From contig JBJMMD010000016.1 in assembly GCA_045804965.1 (NCBI GenBank), positions 293,642-357,641 on the forward strand: DNA of 64,000 bases. The letters are read 5' to 3'. The notes under the pieces are model-generated. The model saw only the letters and a program-made list of their open reading frames with translations. It was not told the DNA's origin and did not search any database. Both the position numbers and the translations under genes were made by a program. Origin of the DNA: Thermomicrobiales bacterium (GTDB lineage Bacteria; Chloroflexota; Chloroflexia; Thermomicrobiales; UBA6265). Positions 382 through 13,045 of this stretch are shown piece by piece; the stretch's first letter is position 1; each line of letters starts with the position of its first letter.

Positions 382-1581
382 CTACCTACTTGATCGGTCC
401 TCGCTAAGCGCGACCGCCAGAGCTGAAATTAATTCGTCAACTTGTTCTTCTTGCCAAACCAGCGGCGGGAGCAAGCGGAGAGCCAGGTTCCCCGCCGGCA
501 ATGCGAGGACGCCGTTTTCTTGCAGGCCCCGCAGTGTTGGCGTCACGCGCTCTTTGAGCTCAATCCCGATCATCAAGCCCCGGCCGCGAACTTGACGGAC
601 CTTTTGGCTGTTGAGGGTTTCAATCCGGCCGATGATCTGGGCCCCGAGTACCTCTGATCGCGTGCAAAGATTGCGCTCTCGGAGCGCGGTCAGCGTTGTT
701 ACAGCCGCCCGGCAGGCGAGCGGATTGCCGCCGAAGGTCGTGCCGTGCGCGCCGCTCGGCATGGCACTGCTGACGGCGTCTGTGACGAGGGTGAGACCGA
801 TGGGGAATCCGTTCGCCAGCGCCTTGGCTGTGGCCAGGATATCGGGCGTGACGCCGGAGCGGGAGATCGCGAATGGGACGCCGGTCCTGAATGCCGTTTG
901 AACTTCGTCGGCAATCAAGAGCGCGCCGTGGCGCGTTGTCAGATCGCGGGCGGCCTGAAGGTAGGCGTCGTCGGCCGGATAGATGCCCGCTTCGCCCTGG
1001 ATCGGCTCGATGATGACGGCGGCGGTTTCGCCGTCGACCGCCGCTTCGAGCGCCGCGACATCGTTGAAGGCAACATGCGTGGCCGGCAATGGCAGAGGCT
1101 CGAACGGCGTCCGGTATTTCGGGTCGGCGGTCGCGGAGAGTGCGCCGAGGGTTCGGCCGTGGTAGGCGCGGCGGGCGGCGACAATGTTGGGCCGACCGGT
1201 AGCCGCGCGGGCGAACTTGAGCGCGGCTTCGATCGCTTCCGCGCCCGAGTTGCTCAGGAACGCGCGCGGCAATCCAGCGGGCGCGATCTTGGCGATTTCG
1301 GCCAGCAGCTCGGCCCGCACGTCGCTGTAGAAGCTCTGGTGGCAGGTTGATAGCGTCGCGAGCTGTTCGGCGAGGGCAGCAGTAAACTCTGGGTCGGCAT
1401 GACCGAGAACCGCAACCCCGTAATTGCTCATCGCGTCGAGGTAGCGGCGGCCCTCGCTGTCAAACAGGTAGGGACCTTCGCCGCGGAGCAGGGCGATTTC
1501 CCGCTTGGCGTAGAGCGGGAGTTGATGATCGTGCTCGATCCGCTGAATCTCGTCGAGCGCCATCGTGGCGGTCGTGGTCAT
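382..1581 (-). CDS. lysJ: class-III PLP aminotransferase, [LysW]-aminoadipate semialdehyde / acetylornithine aminotransferase type
   Basis: 399-aa ORF with SNSGAEAIEAALKFAR, LLIADEVQTAF and TTFGGNPLA motifs. It is the last gene of the LysW operon. Its ATG overlaps the stop of the upstream gene (ATGA at 1578-1581). Confidence 0.85.
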   Translation of the reverse strand: MTTTATMALDEIQRIEHDHQLPLYAKREIALLRGEGPYLFDSEGRRYLDAMSNYGVAVLGHADPEFTAALAEQLATLSTCHQSFYSDVRAELLAEIAKIAPAGLPRAFLSNSGAEAIEAALKFARAATGRPNIVAARRAYHGRTLGALSATADPKYRTPFEPLPLPATHVAFNDVAALEAAVDGETAAVIIEPIQGEAGIYPADDAYLQAARDLTTRHGALLIADEVQTAFRTGVPFAISRSGVTPDILATAKALANGFPIGLTLVTDAVSSAMPSGAHGTTFGGNPLACRAAVTTLTALRERNLCTRSEVLGAQIIGRIETLNSQKVRQVRGRGLMIGIELKERVTPTLRGLQENGVLALPAGNLALRLLPPLVWQEEQVDELISALAVALSEDRSSR

Positions 1582-2108
1582 ATGGACTCCTTGGTCATGA
1601 GCGGTCGGATAATCTGTTCAATCCAATCTTGGATCGGCTCACCCGAGTGATATATCACTTCACCTTCATCGGCTGACGGAGGTTGCATCTCGCCAGAAAC
1701 CAGGGCGAAATCCTCGTCTCGCACGTGCGGCCGCGCGTTCGTCGTTCGGTTTTCGTCGCGCCGTTGCTTGGCCTCTGCCTCCGAGACGTCGACATAGACG
1801 ATCGTCGCCGGCACGCCCTGTCGGGCCGCGATCCGCGTCAAGCGCTGGCGGTGAATCTTCCGATAGCTCGTCGCGTCGAACACGGCTGAGTTTCCCGCCG
1901 CCAACACCTCGTCCAGTTTCTGAAATGACGCGCGATACGCCTCGATCCAGTCTTCGCGAGTGGGTGCCTCTGCATTCAAATCCAATCCGCGCTCGCCATG
2001 GACCGAATCGAGCTCAACATGCGCGAGATCAAGCTGTTCCGCCATCGCCTTCGCCAGCGTCGATTTACCGGAGAACGGCAGACCGCAAAGGATGAAGAGC
2101 CGTTGCAC
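1578..2108 (-). CDS. P-loop ATPase/kinase-like protein (AAA_33-like)
   Basis: Walker A motif GLPFSGKST. I chose GTG at 2108 because the ORF-track N-terminus (to 2213) runs into the palindromic repeat at 2148-2277. It is translationally coupled to lysJ. Confidence 0.65.
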   Translation of the reverse strand: MQRLFILCGLPFSGKSTLAKAMAEQLDLAHVELDSVHGERGLDLNAEAPTREDWIEAYRASFQKLDEVLAAGNSAVFDATSYRKIHRQRLTRIAARQGVPATIVYVDVSEAEAKQRRDENRTTNARPHVRDEDFALVSGEMQPPSADEGEVIYHSGEPIQDWIEQIIRPLMTKESI

Positions 2109-2147
2109 GCAATGAAATTCCTGTCCATATTCGCCCGGGGCTGAAAT

Positions 2148-2277
2148 CACCCAGAGGGTACCCGGGGCTACAAATGACGAAGCCCTTCCAGGGCTGAACA
2201 CGACGCTTTCCACACGGGCCGTCGTCAGCCGGTCTTGAGCCGGCTTCGTAGGTTGAGCCCCGGGTACCCTTCGGGTG
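2148..2277. repeat. 130-bp palindromic MITE/REP-like element (family C)
   Basis: The 21-bp terminal arms cacccagagggtacccggggc (2148-2168) and gccccgggtacccttcgggtg (2257-2277) are inverted repeats with 2 mismatches. Internal segments also pair (acgaagcc/ggcttcgt, ggctga..cgacg/cgtcgtcagcc). Confidence 0.75.
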
Positions 2278-4610: not shown

Positions 4611-5507
4611 CTAATCCGCAGCCGCCGCGGCCCCAACCTCGACCCGCCTCTCCCGACCCGCGCGGCCGACTTCGAGCACATAGTCGATGATGCGCGCGGG
4701 AATGTTGACACCGGTCGTGTCGATGCTATTGCGGAACTCCATCGTGTAATTCACTTCGTTGACGAGCAAGCCCCGATCGCTTTCGAGGAGGTCGACCGCG
4801 ACGACTCCGCCCCCAACCGCGCAGGCGGCTGCTCGCGACAACTGGTCGAGTTCGGGCGTGACCGGGCAATTACTGGCCAGTCCACCACGTGCGGTGTTCG
4901 TGATCCAGTGCGGTGAGTCGCGGTAGATCGCGCAGATCGTCTCGTCGCCGACGACGAATGAGCGGATGTCGCGACCTGGCTTGTGGACGTACTCCTGGAT
5001 GTAGAACGCGCCATGGTGGAACGAGCCGAGCGTCACTTTGTGTTCCAAAATCGCCTCCGCGGCGTCCCGGTCATTGACCCGTGAGAGCAGCCGGCCCCAG
5101 GAACCGATGGCTGGCTTCAAGACGACCGGATAACCAATCTCCTCGATTGCCTCCAACGCCGCTTCCGGCGTGAAAGCGATGATCGTGCGCGGGCTAGGCA
5201 CACCGCCGCGGACAAGCGCGGTTGTCGTCAGCAGCTTGTCGCCGCAGGTGTTGGCGACGTCGTAGGTGTTGACCGTCGGCACACCCCAGTCGTTCAACAC
5301 TTTCAGTGAATAGAGCGCGCGCAAATGGTTGATGCAACGTTCGATCACGACGTCGCAGGCGATCGATGGCCGGAGCAGATCGAGCTTCAATGCACGGTCG
5401 TCGAAGCGGACGACGTGCACACCCCTGCGCTCGAACTCGGTCAGGAGCAGCTTTTCTTCGACCCGGACCCGCGAGAGCAGGATGCCGACAGTTACCTGAT
5501 CGTCCAC
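4611..5507 (-). CDS. lysX: RimK/LysX-family ATP-grasp ligase (alpha-aminoadipate--LysW ligase type), paralog 1
   Basis: [25 protein letters not shown] and [15 protein letters not shown] motifs. GTG at 5507 has GGAGG 5 nt upstream. The ORF-track extension to 5657 covers the T-box leader. Confidence 0.8.
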
Positions 5508-5846
5508 GGATGCCTCCACGTTGCGCCGAGTGGCTGGTGAGCCTGATTCGTCTGTTCGACGCGCTTGCAACAATGCACAAAGCCCCCGTCCAAAGGACGG
5601 AGGGCTTCGCTCCGTGGTACCACCTTTGTTCGCCGGCCCTCGCGGGAACGGCCTCACCGGGCGCCAACACGCCCTGGCTCGGTAACGGGAGCACCCGGCC
5701 GGTTCTAATCCGGTGAGCTACTAGCTCATCGTTTCTTCCGGCGGCTCGGGGGTCTTCTTCAGAATCGGATCTCTCCGCGGACCTTGCACCAATCGTCCGC
5801 TCGCTGGGGCGCTTCCCCGTTCCTAGTCTGTCCCCGTCATTGCCTC
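5508..5846 (-). promoter_or_regulatory. T-box riboswitch leader (candidate Lys specifier AAG at 5754-5756)
   Basis: Read on the minus strand. K-turn GGC-AAU-GA-C-GGGG pairs with CCCC-C-GA-GCC. AG bulge AGCGA is followed by stem GCGGAC/GUCCGC with distal loop GAUUGGUGCAAG. T-box core AAAGGUGGUACCACGG lies at 5612-5627. The antiterminator is CAAAGG[UGGUACC]ACGGAG..CUCCGUCCUUUG. Confidence 0.85.
5568..5604 (-). terminator. intrinsic terminator of the T-box leader
   Basis: CCCUCCGUCC-UUU-GGACGGGGG stem followed by CUUUGUGCAUUGUUG. It competes with the antiterminator because both use the CUCCGUCC segment. Confidence 0.7.
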
Positions 5847-5855
5847 GTTGGTTCG

Positions 5856-6792: not shown

Positions 6793-7871
6793 AGCGCCGC
6801 CAGTACCTCCGTCAACACCCGTACGCCCCTCAGGTATTCGTCGAGCACGATGTGCTCGTCGGGCGTATGGTCGAGCGTCGCATCGCCCGGACCATAGGCG
6901 ACGATAGGGCAGCGCCATACCGGACCCACGACCGTCATGTCGGACGTGCCGAGCTTGACGGTGAATCGCGGCTCGCCGCCGGCGGCGCGAATTGCACGCA
7001 GGAACGGCGGGACAAGCCGCGAACGCTTGTCGGAGCGGTAACCTTCTTGCACACCGTCAAAGGTGAGCACAGCGTCACCCGCCAGCTCTAATATTTCGGA
7101 TTGCAATTCCCGAGTGTCCACATCGGGCGGCAGTCGCAAACCAATCGCCATTCGCGCTTCGTCGTAGAGCCCATCGCTCTCGGTCCACATGCCGCGAACC
7201 GACGGCGTGACGGCGTTGAACAGACCGCTCACGCCTTCGTTTCTGGCGGCGCAGGCAGCGGCGAAGGCGTTCCAAAATGCTATCGCCCGCTCGCCGACCG
7301 ATGCGCCGGGACCAGCCGCGTGGCGGCATGCCTGGCGTAACCTGTAGGCGATCGGCATGGAGCCGCGGTAGCCGAGGCAAACGGCGTCCCAGCCACTCGG
7401 CTCGCCGATGATGCAGAAGTCAGGCGCGGGCCAGGTCGCGACCGCGGACGCCCCGGGCGAATTCAACGATTCCTCGCCGACCGCACCGACGACCGTGACC
7501 GTCGCGTTCAATCGTTCGGCCGCCATCGCCGCGGCCGCGACGAAGGTGGCCAGCGGACCCTTGGCATCGACCGCGCCGCGACCGTGAAGCACGCCGTTTT
7601 CGATCCGGACGGGGATGTTGCCCGGCACGGTGTCGATATGCCCGAGGAGCACGACCGATTTCGGCCCTTCGCCGATTACGCCAACAGCGTTGCCGGCTTC
7701 GTCCCGGTAAGCGCGGAATCCGCGCGCGTCCATGTGCCGGCAGAGGTACGAGACCGCTTCGGCCTCGCCGCCGCTCAGGCTCGGAATGGCAACCATACCG
7801 CGCAAGAGATCGACATGGTCTTGGTCGGTCAACGTGGCGCCGGCGACTTCAAGCGGAGAGAGCGACGTCAT
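6789..7871 (-). CDS. lysK: M20 metallopeptidase, [LysW]-lysine/[LysW]-ornithine hydrolase type
   Basis: [10 protein letters not shown] and [11 protein letters not shown] motifs, about 360 aa. ATG at 7871 has GGGAGG 6 nt upstream. The ORF-track start at 8000 overlaps the upstream gene too far. Confidence 0.8.
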
Positions 7872-8760
7872 CTGGCACCTCCCGCCCGAGGGCTCCGCCC
7901 TGCCCGTCGTCGAGCAGTTCGACCGCAATCGCGTCAGGTCGCAATGAGCCTGCCCATTCGACGGCCAATTTCGCAATCGCCTCGGCGACCGTCGTCTCAC
8001 CGAGTGCGATGGCGTCCCGGAAATCGGGAATCGGATTGACGTTCCAAACGACGGCTCCGGCGGCCATGTGCGCCACCTCGATCCCGATCAGCGACGCGCC
8101 GAGCGCCTTCGCGGCCAGCTCGGCTAAACCGTAGGCCGCCTTGGGTACATCATGGTCATGGCTGTCGACAGCCACGGCGACTCCATCGACGACGATAACG
8201 GTGACCCGGTCCGAACCGAGCGCGATCCCGGTCTGCACGAGCCCAATCAGATCCGCCTTGGCGCCGAGCACGTGGCGGTGCTCGAACACGGCCTCAGCTG
8301 TGTCTTCATCGATCAGCACGATCTCTTTCGATCCGGGTGCCAGCGGCAAGAACGTCGCCGGATAGCCACAGCGGTCGAGCGCGAGCAAGGCCGCATCTTC
8401 GGCGCAGACCAAATCGGTCAAGGGCCGAGGGATGCCGGCGGCGGCAAGCGCCATCGCGGTCGCGAGGCGGTCAGATATCGCCGCCACGCCGGCGTCGATT
8501 ACGCGGACGCCTTTCGCCCGCCAGACCGGGAGCAGGGCCGCTGCGACAGCGCGGTTCTGGCAACGATCGATCATCACCTCGGCCACAGTGCCGTCGTTCG
8601 CCGGGGCGAAGAACGGCTTCGGCGGGCCCGGACAAATGGGGAGTGGCAAGCTAGTAGGGGCGAGCGGAAGCGCCGGAACGCCGGCGTCCGCCAGCGTCTT
8701 GATCAGCTGCTTCTCTTCGACTCGCACGCGCGTGCAGAGCACGCCTACCTTCGCTATCAC
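7849..8760 (-). CDS. divergent RimK/LysX-like ATP-grasp paralog 3, catalytic motifs apparently degenerate
   Basis: The N-terminus [15 protein letters not shown] parallels Lys[16 protein letters not shown]. However, it has [15 protein letters not shown] in place of [15 protein letters not shown], VVWNVNP in place of LVNEVN, and no HWITN. GTG at 8760 has GAGGAG 6 nt upstream; an alternative ATG is at 8793. Confidence 0.6.
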
Positions 8761-8814
8761 CGTTGTCTCCTCAATCCTAACGTTCATCCTCATTCGTTCG
8801 CGTTCGATCGATTC

Positions 8815-8950: not shown

Positions 8951-9114
8951 TTACTCACCCCAGTCCTCGCCTTCTTCCGGCGCCAATCCGAGCGTTAACG
9001 GACTCGTCCCGATGACTTCCAGCTCCGCGCCGCAGTCTGGGCAGGGCACGATTTCGCCCTGCTCGACCCCGCTCAATTCGATTTCCGCCCCGCATTCAGG
9101 ACATGCCGCCATTT
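8951..9114 (-). pseudogene. lysW: LysW amino-group carrier protein, reading frame broken by an apparent 2-nt insertion
   Basis: ATG at 9114 (GGAGAGGAA upstream) gives [18 protein letters not shown]. The frame then shifts at CTCT (about 9059-9062). The next frame reads [35 protein letters not shown]-stop, with the hallmark C-terminal EDWGE. The span is 164 nt, which is 162 plus 2. Confidence 0.75.
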
Positions 9115-9152: not shown

Positions 9153-10196
9153 TCAGCACAACGTATGCAGCAGCAACGCTTTATGGACATGTAGGCGGTT
9201 TTCCGCCTGGTCGAAAATGATCGACTGCGGGCCGTCTGCGACCTCGGCCTCGACTTCTTCTCCCCGTCGCATCGGCAGACAGTGCATGAAGACCGCGGTC
9301 GGTTTCGCCATTGCCATCACGCCGGTCGTCACCCGGTAGGCTGCCAGCCTGGTCGCCTTCTGCGTGCTCTCGTTCTGGCCCATGCTCTGGTGGACATCGG
9401 TGTAGACGGCGTCGGCTCCGGTCACGGCCTCCTCGAGGCGCTCAGTGACGGTAATCTTCGCCCCGCTCGTCGCGGCCAGTCCCTGAGCGATGCGGACAAT
9501 TTCTTCCACGGGATGGTAGTCAGCGGGGGCGGCCACGTTGACGTTCACGCCCATCGCCGAGCAGGCGAGGAGCAACGAGTTGCACATGTTGTTGCCATCG
9601 CCGAGGTAGGCAAAGGTCTGGCCCTTGAGATCGCCGAACCGTTCTTGGAGCGTAAACAGATCGCCCAGCGCTTCGATCGGGTGAGACTTCTCGGTCAGAC
9701 CGTTGAACACGGGCACCGATGCGCCCGCCGCAAAATCGAGCAGGTCCTGGTGCCTCGCGATGCGGCAGGCAACGGCATCGAGATACAAGCTCATGATCTC
9801 GGCGGTATCCTCGATCGTCTCGCCCCGGCGCAGTTGCAAATCGTCGGTACCGAGGAAGATCGTGTGCCCGCCGAGTTGCTCCATTCCGACCTGGAACGCC
9901 GTCCGGGTGCGCGTGCTCGGGTGCTGGAAAACGAGGCCGAGCGTCTTGCCGGTCAGAAAAGTGTGCGGCAGACCACTCCGCCGCATCCCTTTCAGCCGAG
10001 CCGCGGTGCCGAGCAGCTCGTCGATCTCGTCCGGCGCCAGGTCGGTGTCGAAGAGGACGCTGCGGCCGCGCAGACGCAGGCTGATCCCCGTCGGACCGTA
10101 CTCGCCCCGCGTGAAGCGATCGTCCGGCAATGCCTCGCCATCCCACCCTTGACTATCGTGTTGTGTCGTCGCGTCTACCACATCGGTCCCTAACAC
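9153..10196 (-). CDS. ornithine carbamoyltransferase-family protein, paralog 1
   Basis: FQHPSTRTR, DVHQSMG, HCLPMRRGEEV and FDQAENRLH motifs. It has HPIE where the family has HPxQ. The start (GTG at 10196) is uncertain. There is a roughly 40-aa N-terminal extension before LRGRSVLFDTDL. Confidence 0.75.
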   Translation of the reverse strand: MLGTDVVDATTQHDSQGWDGEALPDDRFTRGEYGPTGISLRLRGRSVLFDTDLAPDEIDELLGTAARLKGMRRSGLPHTFLTGKTLGLVFQHPSTRTRTAFQVGMEQLGGHTIFLGTDDLQLRRGETIEDTAEIMSLYLDAVACRIARHQDLLDFAAGASVPVFNGLTEKSHPIEALGDLFTLQERFGDLKGQTFAYLGDGNNMCNSLLLACSAMGVNVNVAAPADYHPVEEIVRIAQGLAATSGAKITVTERLEEAVTGADAVYTDVHQSMGQNESTQKATRLAAYRVTTGVMAMAKPTAVFMHCLPMRRGEEVEAEVADGPQSIIFDQAENRLHVHKALLLHTLC

Positions 10197-11278
10197 ATCG
10201 TGTGGAGCAGGAGCGCCTTCGACAGATGCAGCCGGTTTTCAGCTTGCTCCCAAATGATCGATTGCGAGCCGTCGGCAACCTCCGCCGTGACTTCTTCTTC
10301 CCGGTGCATCGGCAGGCAGTGCATGAAGATCGCACTTGGCTGCGCCGTCGCCATGATCTCTTGGGTCACTTTGTACGGAGCGAGCGCGACCGCGCGGGCT
10401 GCGCCATCGGTTTGGCCCATGCTGACGTGAACGTCGGTATAGACTGCGTCCGCATCCTTCGCCGCGACGTAGGGATCGTCAGAAACGGCGATCTTCGCGC
10501 CCGAGGCGCTGCCGAGCCACGTCGCGTGCTTCACCACGTCCGGAGCGGGCTGGAATTTCTCAGGCGCCGCCACCGAGACGCTGATCCCCATCGCCGCACA
10601 CGACAGCAGCAACGAACACACGACGTTGTTGCCGTCGCCGAGATAGGCGAGCTTCAGCCCTGCCAGCGTGCCGAACTGCTCTTGCAGGGTCAGCAGATCG
10701 GCCAGCGCCTGCAACGGGTGGCTCGTGTCGGAGAGCCCGTTCAGCACTGGAATCGAGGCCGATGCATGCAACGTCTTCAGATCGTTGTGGTCGGCTACGC
10801 GGGCGACAATCGCATCAACGTACCGGCTCAAGATCTGCGCCGTGTCGCCAATCGTTTCGCCCCGCTTCATTTGCAGGTCGTTGACGCCGAGAAAGATCGC
10901 CTGACCGCCAAGCTGGGCCATGCCGGCTTCCAAGGCAACCCGCGTTCGCGTGCTGGGATGTTGGAAGAGCATGCCGAGCGTTTTACCCGGCAAGTACGGG
11001 TGCGGCTCGCTCTTTTTGTGCAATCGCTTCAGCCGGGCCGCGGTTTCCAGCAGCTCGTGAATCTCGTCGGGCGTCAGATCGGTGTCGACCAGCACACTTC
11101 GCCCGCGGAGGCGGGTCGAGAGACTAAACGTCGCGATCTTGGACGTGGTCTGACCGCCGAGGGACACGGTGCGCGCGGCCGCCGGCATATCCGGCGTGAC
11201 CACCGGCGCGGTCGGCATCGTATGCAGGGCAGGACTATCAACAATAGGGGGCTGTTTGGCAGTCGAGAAGTCTTCCAT
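10190..11278 (-). CDS. ornithine carbamoyltransferase-family protein, paralog 2
   Basis: FQHPSTRTR, HPLQALADL, DVHVSMG and HCLPMHREEEV motifs. ATG at 11278 has GGAGGG 8 nt upstream. The ORF-track extension to 11641 is the T-box leader. Confidence 0.8.
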   Translation of the reverse strand: MEDFSTAKQPPIVDSPALHTMPTAPVVTPDMPAAARTVSLGGQTTSKIATFSLSTRLRGRSVLVDTDLTPDEIHELLETAARLKRLHKKSEPHPYLPGKTLGMLFQHPSTRTRVALEAGMAQLGGQAIFLGVNDLQMKRGETIGDTAQILSRYVDAIVARVADHNDLKTLHASASIPVLNGLSDTSHPLQALADLLTLQEQFGTLAGLKLAYLGDGNNVVCSLLLSCAAMGISVSVAAPEKFQPAPDVVKHATWLGSASGAKIAVSDDPYVAAKDADAVYTDVHVSMGQTDGAARAVALAPYKVTQEIMATAQPSAIFMHCLPMHREEEVTAEVADGSQSIIWEQAENRLHLSKALLLHTMC

Positions 11279-11625
11279 GGTGGTTTCCCTCCGGCTCTCG
11301 TCCGAGACGAGACGCTTCGCGCCTGCAACGTCCATTCGTCGCGGGCCGAAGGGGCGAGAGGCGTCAACTCCCGCGGTACCACCCTTCTTGCGCTGGGTTG
11401 ACCGAAGATCGGTCTGAGCGGCAAAACCCTGCGCATCTCTCGGTTGTTGCTCGCTTGGGAACCACCCAACCGGACCTACTTGCCATCCATCACCGACGTG
11501 CAGGACGCTTTCTTCGGCCGGCCGCTCAGGGGCGCGTTCCGGGTTCGGGCGCAGTTCCTGGACTTCCACCGTCTCCAGGTCGCTTCGGCGCGCGAGCCCC
11601 GTACTCCTCCCCGTCAATGCGGGCT
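11279..11625 (-). promoter_or_regulatory. T-box riboswitch leader (candidate Arg specifier CGC at 11534-11536)
   Basis: Read on the minus strand. K-turn CCGC-AUU-GA-C-GGGG pairs with CCCC-U-GA-GCGG. The 5-prime specifier-loop strand is AGGAGUA. AG bulge AGCGA is followed by stem CCUGGA/UCCAGG with distal loop GACGGUGGAAG. T-box core GGGUGGUACCGCG lies at 11372-11384. The antiterminator is GAAGGG[UGGUACC]GCGGGAG..CUCUCGCCCCUUC. Confidence 0.85.
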
Positions 11626-11785
11626 GGATGAGCGACAACACTGCCGCCCGTCCGTGAATACCTAAAAATTCAACTGTCAGGCTGTGGGTGAGCGCTGGCG
11701 GGCGACCGTCAGCGCGCGGTACGGAACCGTCGCGTCGGTCGCCCGAGCGGAGAGCGGGAGAGGCTCTCCGGGTGTGTTGTCAGCC

Positions 11786-13045
11786 TCATCGCATGACCTC
11801 CGCGTCCTGATGCAACCGCCGGTCCCGCTGCGCGGCGACCTTCTGTCCGAGTCCGAAGAGCCGGATAAAGCCCTCCGCGTCCGCCTGCCGGTAGACGTCA
11901 TCGGCTCCGAACGTCGCCAGGTCCTCTTCGTAGAGGCCGAATGGCGATTTTCGCCCGACCGCGACGCACGTGCCTTTGTAGAGTTTCAGCCGAACATCAC
12001 CGCTAACTGGTTCTTGCGTCTTCTCCACGAAGGCATCAAGCGCGGCTTTGATCGGCGTGAACCAGAGGCCATTGTAAACCAGATCGGCATAGTTAATTGC
12101 AAGCTGATCTTTTTGTCGCATGGTGAGCTTGTCGAGCGTCAAGTGCTCAAGCTCGCGATGGGCGGTCGCCAAGATCGTCCCACCCGGCGTTTCGTAGATG
12201 CCCCGGCTCTTCATGCCGACAAGTCTGTTCTCGAGCAGATCGACCCGGCCGACACCGTGCTTGCCGCCGAGCTCGTTCAGCAGCGCGAGCAGTTCCAGCG
12301 GTTGCAGCGGCTGCCCATTAACCGCCACCGGCCAACCTTGGTCGAACGCCACGGTGACGTATTCGGCCTCATCCGGCGCGGCTTCGGGCGCCACGGTCAG
12401 TTCGTAGGCATCGCCCGGCGGCTCGTTCCACGGGTCCTCGATTGCGCCCCCTTCATGTGAGAGGTGCCAGAGATTGCCGTCGATTGAATAGATCTTTGCC
12501 TTCGTCGCCGAAACCGGCACGCCGTGCGCTTCCGCATAGGCGATCGCGTCTTCTCGCGATTTGATTTCCCAGTGCCGCCAAGGGGCGATGACCTTCAGCT
12601 GCGGGGCGAGCGCCTGATACGTCAGCTCGAAGCGAACCTGATCGTTCCCCTTGCCGGTGCAGCCGTGAGCGACGGCGTCCGCGCCTTCGAGCATGGCGAT
12701 CTCGACCTGATGCTTCGCAATCAGCGGCCGCGCCATCGAGGTCCCGAGCAGGTACTTGCGCTCGTAGATCGCGCCCGCCCGCAGCGTCGGGAAGGCGTAT
12801 TCCTTGAGGAACTCCTCGCGCGCGTCGACAACGTAGGCCTTCGATGCGCCACTCGCGAGCGCCTTCGCCTCGATGCTAGAGAGATCGTCCGGCTGGCCAA
12901 CGTTGACCGCGGTCGCGATCACTTCGCAGTCGAAGTGTTCTTTCAACCAGGGAATGATGCAGGACGTATCGAGCCCGCCGGAATAGGCGAGAACGACTTT
13001 ACCGAGTGTTTGTTTATCAGTGGAAAAAGCGACCGGCGCGCTCAC
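11786..13045 (-). CDS. argG: argininosuccinate synthase
   Basis: [13 protein letters not shown]-type ATP-PPase motif, 419 aa. GTG at 13045 has GGGAGG 6 nt upstream. Confidence 0.9.

Follow-up and report, generated by a model that had tools for sequence, protein, structure and literature searches.

A probable translational tRNA-Arg T-box precedes tandem ornithine carbamoyltransferase genes in Thermomicrobiales and is kept open in their reading frame

Introduction

Which signal governs a tandem pair of ornithine carbamoyltransferase (OTC) genes embedded in a LysW-carrier cluster, and at which step of gene expression does it act? This question is raised by the minus-strand leader at 11626..11279 in a 64,000-nt window (the whole stretch of DNA analysed here) of contig JBJMMD010000016.1 from a Thermomicrobiales bacterium. 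The leader lies in front of OTC1, the first gene of the pair. Here, we suggest that it is likely a T-box that senses tRNA-Arg and that would control the initiation of OTC1 translation by sequestration of the Shine-Dalgarno (SD) sequence. In addition, we find that the leader is kept free of stop codons in the OTC frame and that upstream of it lies a short upstream open reading frame (uORF), which opens the possibility that ribosomes reach OTC1 through the T-box itself.

Translational T-boxes form a small class that is found mostly in Actinobacteria and in which Stem I is usually truncated (PMC7583486). Such T-boxes have been described for ileS in Mycobacterium smegmatis, M. tuberculosis and Nocardia farcinica (Sherwood et al. 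2015, reviewed in PMC7583486), and TBDB models translational T-boxes for actinobacterial Ile leaders only (10.1101/2020.06.17.157016). Arg T-boxes have been catalogued on argG, argF, argCJBD(F), argH and artPQM of Clostridium difficile and C. bartlettii (PMC3766115 supplementary file 2; PMC11477304). For its five Chloroflexi genomes, the PMC3766115 resource lists no Arg or Lys T-box, and Thermomicrobiales lie outside its coverage.

Results and Discussion

The OTC leader has the anatomy of a complete T-box

The whole RF00230 model (positions 1-219) aligns to 11626..11347 on the minus strand with 52.2 bits, with E values of 1.6e-10 in a local search and 1.5e-8 over the whole window. For the comparative analyses, OTC1 was used as query with one genome per species, which gave 80 orthologous loci, all from metagenome-assembled genomes and labelled Thermomicrobiales, Chloroflexia or Sphaerobacteraceae, with identities of up to 89%. 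The leader is found before OTC in 74 of the 80 loci, and the motif GGGUGGUACC(G/A)CG is present in 74/80 loci, 100-250 nt upstream of the OTC match. A genome-wide pattern, GGGTGGTACC-N15-21-CGCCCCTT, returned T-boxes of many phyla among the matches listed and is uninformative on distribution.

Stem I has its full length of 103 nt, and 64 leaders can be aligned over it without a gap; 15 of its 21 predicted pairs are preserved through both-sided changes (RNAalifold, 44 orthologs). AGCGA and GGUGGAA align to the positions AGAGA and UGGUGAAA of the RF00230 model, and both are kept in the 64 gapless orthologs. Stem IIA is 98% paired among orthologs, and the length of the IIA/B segment is constant at 39 nt. 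The IIB pair 20-37 is never broken, with 54 sequences having C-G and 16 having U-A; controls in which the partner strand was slid give 1-46% for IIB. In the antisequestrator, which consists of the helices A1 and A2, 96% of cells are paired in 69 orthologs with compensatory change at three A2 pairs.

Judged by this anatomy, the OTC leader is a canonical and anatomically complete T-box, an element far beyond chance. The initial annotation of this DNA had listed the T-box hallmarks on the minus strand (K-turn, AGUA, AGCGA, GGUG loop and UGGUACC bulge); all are found where it placed them (Table 1), and the covariance-model alignment and the comparative structure agree on the identity of the element. 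An additional pairing between the antisequestrator loop and the platform (GACGC at 11361..11365 with GCGUC at 11311..11315, minus strand) was considered and discarded: the two segments are conserved and complementary, but their variants do not covary, and the longest complementary run has a mean of 4.9 nt compared with 4.3 nt in shuffles.

The specifier reads CGC

The RF00230 alignment gives GAA-CGC-G-CCCC-UGAGC for the 3' side of the specifier loop and places CGC at the codon position, the same Arg triplet that had been proposed from the sequence initially. With the K-turn side as anchor, the orthologs carry CGC (about 67 leaders) or CGG (7 leaders) only, and the next base is a purine in every leader. 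Three leaders contain one extra base after GAA; because CGC-purine stays beside the helix in these leaders as well, the register of the specifier is fixed. The switch between CGC and CGG is synonymous and involves codons of different isoacceptors, which is what would be expected of an Arg sensor.

In another register the leader would sense another tRNA, with the codon being ACG (Thr) after a shift by one base upstream, or GCG/GGG after a shift by one base downstream. ACG would be constant across the CGC and CGG variants; however, in this register a pyrimidine follows the codon in most leaders, and the codon turns into CCG in two of them (L039 and L056). One base downstream, the amino acid would differ between the CGC and CGG variants. 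The K-turn-anchored register, which gives an Arg codon followed by a purine throughout, agrees with the Rfam alignment as well as with the glyQS architecture, and the regulated genes are arginine-making. We therefore regard a shifted register as highly improbable and retain CGC as the specifier.

The cluster itself provides an internal control. A Lys T-box lies in front of lysX, and here the same anchoring gives AAG. This T-box is conserved in about 25 loci, and AAG followed by a purine is found in about 21 of the 25. A clue to its presence is that the open reading frame at 4611..5657 starts with NKGGTTE, which resembles KKGGTAG, the frame-0 translation of the Arg T-box sequence. Finally, the UGGU in the antisequestrator bulge predicts that the cognate tRNA has A73 as discriminator.

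The expression platform opposes the ribosome-binding site of OTC1

In the minimum-free-energy fold, CCCCUUCGGC pairs with GCCGGAGGG, thereby closing a three-way junction with two inner hairpins; the region enclosed by this sequestrator measures 34-73 nt among orthologs. A1 and the sequestrator are mutually exclusive because C11353..U11350 is used by both. For the window, the fold energies are -56.7 kcal/mol with the sequestrator and -50.4 kcal/mol with the antisequestrator enforced, and since the sequestrator fold is thus about 6 kcal/mol more stable, OFF is predicted to be the default state. Pairing in the platform was counted in an anchored gapless alignment of 69 leaders with the partner strand slid as the control. 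A test structure that includes the sequestrator is 86.8% paired, compared with 42-59% in the slid controls; at sequestrator pair 42-71, 53 sequences have C-G and 8 have U-A, and five pair types occur at pair 45-68. The SD precedes the start codon by 12 nt in 55 of 73 loci (anchor-based). Thus, the complementarity between the 3' strand of the antiterminator and the ribosome-binding site of OTC1, from which translational control had been suggested initially, corresponds to a pairing in the minimum-free-energy fold that shows compensatory changes in orthologs.

A terminator scan of the minus strand of the window found no hairpin with a U-tract after the discriminator, in line with what had been noted initially; moreover, the platform is U-poor in orthologs. 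In the Lys T-box, the 3' strand of the antiterminator runs straight into the hairpin GCCCUCCGUCC-UUU-GGACGGGGGC, which is followed by a U-rich tract. A simple terminator scanner leaves this hairpin unflagged in the window (only 4 U in the first 8 nt), and its assignment as a terminator is made because of the visible hairpin and the stronger U-runs in orthologs.

Alternatively, the OTC leader may act on transcription, either by a terminator without a U-tract or by Rho-dependent termination in the long platform, and the complementarity to the SD would then be incidental. Most known T-boxes are transcriptional (PMC7583486), and stable hairpins are present in the platform. Atypical terminators can be used by bacteria with GC-rich genomes. 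On the other hand, the terminator scan found no hairpin with a U-tract at this place on the minus strand, and the platform of orthologs is poor in U. Canonical terminators do occur in these genomes, as the ordinary hairpin and U-run of the Lys T-box 5 kb downstream show. Also, the partner of the antiterminator 3' strand is an SD at a regular distance from the start codon, and this pairing covaries. Given that covariation of the SD pairing and absence of a terminator both point to translational control, we consider a transcriptional mode of action unlikely.

Combining these data, we suggest the following switch for the translational T-box: (i) Stem I would present CGC to the anticodon of tRNA-Arg, the distal AG bulge and loop platform would stack on the tRNA elbow, and UGGU in the bulge would pair with ACCA-3' of uncharged tRNA, as the anatomy suggests, (ii) without uncharged tRNA, CCCUUCGGC would pair with GCCGGAGGG, so that the three-way junction is closed and the 30S subunit blocked (OFF), and (iii) uncharged tRNA-Arg would stabilise AGGG:CCCU and GCGGGAG:CUCUCGC, by which CCCU would be taken from the SD and the ribosome-binding site set free (ON). 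From the sequence we infer tRNA binding, discrimination of charge and the effect on translation.

Several observations weigh against this proposal. First, the 52.2 bits of the OTC leader are below the RF00230 gathering score of 93. Both T-boxes are missed by an Rfam search at default gathering cut-offs, which reports only a SAM riboswitch, and E-value thresholds are needed to detect them; their scores are low because of long GC-rich insertions in Stems II and III. Second, the five core pairs of the sequestrator (CCCUU:AAGGG) are invariant. The core is fixed by the T-box on one side and by the SD on the other, and covariation of the sequestrator for this reason rests on the outer four pairs. 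Third, in the antisequestrator-enforced fold the SD is predicted to remain weakly paired with the early coding sequence. Fourth, a search of the window and of 60 loci found no tRNA gene, and a match of the tRNA-Arg discriminator to UGGU is a prediction. Fifth, the frame lock described below implies ribosomes that cross the leader and unfold the T-box, which a simple 5'-UTR (untranslated region) switch does not predict. The data presented here establish the anatomy of the leader and its conservation, show that all helices covary, that the specifier switches between synonymous codons and that two helices exclude each other, and reveal no terminator. On balance, we think it likely that the OTC leader is a tRNA-Arg T-box controlling OTC1 translation initiation by SD sequestration.

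The leader is locked in the reading frame of OTC

In the 420 nt (140 codons) before the start codon, the OTC frame contains no stop codon in 72 loci; each of the other five frames contains 119-219. Taken separately, the 1,920 spacer codons, the 5,123 codons of stems I-III and the 2,557 platform codons are each free of stops. The T-box motif and the SD-associated start lie 97 to 133 nt apart, and this distance is 1 mod 3 in 75 of 76 leaders. Similarly, the segments between anchors differ in length by multiples of three only, with 20 lengths for the spacer (74-197 nt, all 2 mod 3), 18 for the segment from the specifier to Stem II and 12 for Stem III. The exception, L068 (L068:5894-6000), is the closest relative (89% identity) and has an extra T in a TTTT run that follows the antisequestrator, which may reflect a sequencing error at a homopolymer. 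The Lys T-box behaves differently: its distances to the start codon are 0, 1 and 2 mod 3 in 6, 10 and 8 loci, respectively, i.e. there is no frame constraint, and in-frame stops lie 6-450 nt upstream except in one locus (L067).

The leader has no ordinary coding signature. The GC content at the three codon positions is flat (0.70/0.63/0.68), whereas it is 0.69/0.45/0.86 in OTC, and no conserved start codon in the OTC frame was found across the leader among orthologs; on these grounds an ordinary N-terminal coding extension was rejected. An antisense gene as the source of the frame lock was rejected as well, since all three antisense frames hold stops (119-142 in 72 loci) and lack a GC signature at the third codon position. 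Because translation is the only known process that reads triplets, we infer that ribosomes probably traverse the leader in the OTC frame. Selection would then act on the openness of the frame alone and not on the peptide. The frame lock is statistically overwhelming. In this respect the initial annotation was incomplete: it had missed the frame lock to OTC, the uORF and the Lys T-box.

A short upstream reading frame and the possible entry of ribosomes

With few exceptions, the final OTC-frame stop before the leader is the TGA that ends the upstream gene (argG in 29 loci, another gene elsewhere). This upstream stop overlaps an ATG or GTG (ATGA or TGATG), and an SD-like motif, mostly GGAGG, precedes the start in 61 of 64 loci. 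The uORF that begins here mostly comprises 24-34 codons (range 20-46) and ends at a fixed position at which TGA, TAG and TAA are all used. Three synonymous Pro codons are used at each of two conserved positions (four in all), and Ser and Arg codons also vary synonymously; from the conserved block to the stop, synonymous changes make up 0.55 of the differences in the uORF frame versus 0.34-0.36 in the other frames. Judged from these substitution patterns, translation of the uORF looks real. Its last 16 codons read S-R-S-P-x-(G/R)-R-P-A-R-R-x-R-x-T-R with 6-7 Arg at conserved positions. The Arg-richness was rejected as evidence on its own, as the same frame of neighbouring coding DNA is just as rich in Arg and spurious reading frames there, in GC-rich DNA, also reach about 30% Arg. 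Within the near-invariant block, NCC-CGC is invariant at the nucleotide level in the 40 loci of the main length class, and the remaining Ser, Pro and Arg codons of the uORF show synonymous changes. The CGC of this block is the same codon as the T-box specifier.

How could ribosomes enter the OTC frame? Readthrough of the upstream UGA is unlikely given that in about 12 of 68 loci another stop follows in frame within 1-4 codons, TAG and TAA included. In L067, an OTC-frame stop lies 6 nt before the NCC-CGC block, and because of this any entry has to occur at or after NCC-CGC. A model in which the T-box is part of a translated stretch is that ribosomes enter the OTC frame upstream and run through the spacer and the T-box into OTC1, the likeliest entry being a +1 shift in the 16 codons that lead from NCC-CGC to the uORF stop. 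Such translation would supplement or partly replace the SD switch, and an arginine sensor based on the ribosome would be superimposed on the tRNA sensor. The model would account for the complete lack of OTC-frame stops over 140 codons in 72 loci and for the triplet-only indels, neither of which is a feature of the Lys T-box of the same genomes. It is also consistent with the properties of the uORF (the SD-like motif, the overlap of ATG and stop, the fixed stop and the synonymous variation of Pro, Ser and Arg codons), which lies in the -1 frame, so that a +1 shift reaches the OTC frame, and contains the invariant NCC-CGC. Moreover, incidental frameshifting in a leader peptide gene is known for pheL (PMC3082878).

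Other observations argue against the translated stretch. GC content is flat by codon position, and the OTC frame has no conserved start. Readthrough is an unlikely route for the reason given above, and the shift itself is conjectural: re-pairing from UCC to CCC would be imperfect for the majority P-site codon, and no stimulator is present at the spacing of prfB. The OTC frame of the leader is Arg-rich too, and a ribosome shifted by starvation would therefore stall again. Finally, a passing ribosome would destroy the T-box fold. Weighing these points, we give a translated T-box slightly less than an even chance. The specific scheme, in which ribosomes start on the uORF coupled to the upstream gene, some of them shift +1 after NCC-CGC, and these translate the entire T-box into OTC1, is tentative and somewhat less probable still.

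The spacer contains additional features. The fold of 11795..11640 has an energy of -67 kcal/mol (z = -2.8) and includes the hairpin H1. A second hairpin, H0 (CGGAGAG..CUCUCCG), is conserved, and H0 and H1 lie within 11699..11770 (minus strand). The 3' strand of H1, GCGCUGACGG, can alternatively pair with the downstream CGUUAGCGC/CAGCGC repeat in orthologs. These alternative pairings of H1/H2, which were recognised by eye, are attenuator-like, but the window has no U-tract terminator there. The invariant block (11754..11760, minus strand) contains CUCCCGC, a perfect complement of the A2 5' strand GCGGGAG (11368..11374, minus strand), as well as CUCCC, which is complementary to GGGAG in the OTC SD. 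Just upstream of Stem I, the AT-rich patch GUUGAAUUUUUAGGUAUUCAC (11655..11675, minus strand) stands out from DNA that is otherwise 66% GC and may be a promoter; a scan of the argG-OTC spacer for promoter consensus sequences found no site.

Comparison with known systems

The OTC leader works like the translational ileS subfamily of Actinobacteria without being a member of it. The two share the discriminator, an antisequestrator 3' strand that alternatively pairs with the SD region, the lack of a terminator, and Stem II together with IIA/B. In contrast, (i) Stem I of the ileS leaders is mostly truncated with the specifier in the apical loop, whereas that of the OTC leader is of full length with K-turn, AG bulge and distal loop, (ii) the ileS leaders respond to Ile and precede an aminoacyl-tRNA synthetase gene, whereas the OTC leader reads an Arg codon and heads a biosynthetic operon in Chloroflexota, and (iii) a simple hairpin in ileS is replaced by a sequestrator that closes a three-way junction, and the whole OTC leader is frame-locked.

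With the Arg T-boxes of Clostridium, the OTC leader shares the amino acid, the pathway (including the OTC gene argF) and the RNA family. However, the Clostridium T-boxes belong to the classical acetylated arginine pathway, whereas the OTC leader belongs to a LysW-carrier cluster with tandem OTCs in Thermomicrobiales. Also, the former are taken to be transcriptional, an assumption based on the norm in Firmicutes (PMC7583486), in contrast to the translational action suggested here. Consequently, the initial suggestion that a T-box of this kind was undescribed has to be narrowed: Arg T-boxes on arg genes were already catalogued in Clostridia, while the novelty lies in the translational form, the taxon and the setting in a LysW cluster. 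Canonical transcriptional T-boxes (glyQS and tyrS of Bacillus subtilis and, in this window, the Lys T-box) resemble the OTC leader in the order GAA, codon, purine, helix and K-turn in Stem I, in the T-box sequence AGGGUGGUACC and in the antiterminator bulge. They have a terminator hairpin and U-tract right after the antiterminator, whereas in the OTC leader the SD, about 55 nt downstream, acts as the competing strand.

The uORF invites comparison with leader-peptide attenuators such as trp, his and pheL, and with the rtpA (anti-TRAP) leader of B. subtilis, which combines a Trp T-box with the leader peptide rtpLP. As in the attenuators, a short upstream reading frame is rich in codons for the regulated amino acid and overlaps alternative hairpins with its 3' half, and as in rtpA a T-box and a leader peptide are joined in one leader. 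Unlike in these systems, the uORF lies upstream and not downstream of the T-box, no clear terminator follows it in the window, and its Arg-richness does not exceed the background of this frame in GC-rich DNA. We know of no attenuator that holds 150 codons open in frame with the structural gene.

Precedents for an autoregulatory +1 frameshift are prfB, which encodes RF2, and Ty1, in which shifting at CUU-AGG-C depends on a scarce tRNA-Arg. Here as there, a long frame follows a short one and is displaced from it by +1, the candidate site has a slow codon (for Arg, as in Ty1), and the product would relieve the shortage. However, compared with prfB, the SD-like GGAG lies 6 nt and not 3 nt before the candidate P-site codon, and re-pairing from UCC to CCC is imperfect.

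The findings extend translational T-boxes to Chloroflexota, to another amino acid, to a biosynthetic operon and to a full-length Stem I, and provide about 75 natural variants, one per species, for structure-function work. The frame lock and the uORF are new and raise the interest of this leader well above that of one more T-box: a regulatory RNA of about 350 nt plus spacer evolves like an open reading frame, with no stops in about 10,000 codons and triplet indels only. If ribosomes traverse the leader, sensing of tRNA by RNA and sensing of codons by the ribosome would be joined in one element. A translated T-box would, if true, be a doubly read RNA and coding sequence, an arrangement described for no riboswitch, and the overlapping constraints of RNA structure and reading frame make it a directly testable case. 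A limited literature search found no paper that ties T-boxes to LysW clusters and none that reports a riboswitch locked in frame with a gene.

Gene context

Table 1. Positions of the leader elements, the Lys T-box and neighbouring features in the window. A1 and A2 denote the two antisequestrator helices.
Feature	Position	Strand	Details
T-box leader core (Stem I, Stem II, IIA/B pseudoknot, Stem III, antisequestrator)	11347..11626	-	RF00230 full-model match
Stem I (K-turn, AGUA/GAA S-turn, AGCGA bulge, GGUGGAA distal loop)	11518..11620	-	RNAalifold
K-turn and AGUA strand UUGACGGGGAGGAGUA	11617..11602	-	
Specifier CGC (Arg)	11536..11534	-	followed by purine G11533 and the CCCC strand of the helix above the K-turn; Rfam alignment
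Stem IIA/B pseudoknot	11442..11469	-	UGGG..CCCA; loop GGUU pairs with AACC
Antisequestrator	11350..11385	-	A1 AGGG:CCCU; A2 GCGGGAG:CUCUCGC, loop UUGACGC
AGGG/UGGUACC/GCGGGAG	11385..11368	-	7-nt bulge UGGUACC at 11381..11375
Anti-SD strand CCCUUCGGC	11353..11345	-	first four bases double as A1 3' strand
Anti-SD sequence CCCUUCGG			
Two inner hairpins and conserved GCGUC	11296..11344	-	three-way junction closed by the sequestrator (minimum-free-energy fold)
SD strand GCCGGAGGG of OTC1	11295..11287	-	complementary to 11353..11345
OTC1 start ATG	11278..11276	-	directly 3' of the leader
Stop-free stretch in OTC frame	11279..11779	-	from after TGA 11782..11780 to the OTC ATG; spans uORF, spacer and entire T-box
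uORF	11709..11789	-	26 codons; ATG overlaps argG stop (ATGA); -1 frame relative to OTC
Near-invariant block UCC-CGC-UCU-CC	11749..11759	-	in uORF; Arg CGC at 11756..11754
Hairpin H1 (GGGCGACCG..CGGUCGCCC)	11699..11745	-	long, conserved in orthologs; uORF stop in 3' strand
argG	13045..11786	-	upstream of the OTC leader
OTC1	10190..11278	-	362 aa; N-terminal low-complexity extension of about 55 aa; TIGR00658 371 bits (cut-off 281)
OTC2	9153..10196	-	347 aa; TIGR00658 355 bits; 7-nt overlap with OTC1 end
LysW carrier protein	8951..9112	-	53 aa; CxxC..CxxC; C-terminal EDWGE; between OTC2 and divergent LysX-like gene
Lys T-box	5590..5849	-	RF00230 75.2 bits, E 1.8e-14; below gathering score 93
Lys T-box specifier AAG (Lys)	5756..5754	-	same K-turn-anchored register, then purine
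Lys T-box terminator-type hairpin	5605..5582	-	followed by UUUGUG
lysX start GTG	5507	-	after Lys T-box
SAM-I riboswitch RF00162	30682..30783	+	77.1 bits, over gathering score

Both OTC1 and OTC2 exceed the cut-off of the curated TIGR00658 OTC equivalog family, and a LysW gene of 53 codons' product length follows them, which bears out the initial description of tandem OTC genes within a LysW cluster. Behind LysW lie a divergent LysX-like gene, a [LysW]-lysine hydrolase (LysK-type), two LysX/ArgX ligases, LysY/ArgC, LysZ and LysJ. The leader probably controls OTC1 and, by way of overlapping or closely spaced genes, also OTC2, lysW and the genes behind. The cluster is split such that the Arg T-box (suggested to be translational) stands ahead of OTC1, OTC2, LysW, LysK and one ligase, and the Lys T-box (terminator type) ahead of LysX-LysY-LysZ-LysJ; in this way, a shared LysW-carrier cluster would be divided between two end products by an Arg and a Lys T-box.

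The tandem OTC paralogs (9153..11278, minus strand) each have an N-terminal extension of about 45-55 aa, and the HPxQ motif of OTC2 reads HPIE. Elsewhere in the LysW cluster, a LysX/RimK-like protein (7849..8793, minus strand) matches weakly, with 72 bits (cut-off 276), and a small P-loop kinase-like open reading frame (1578..2213, minus strand) gives a weak PSTK match.

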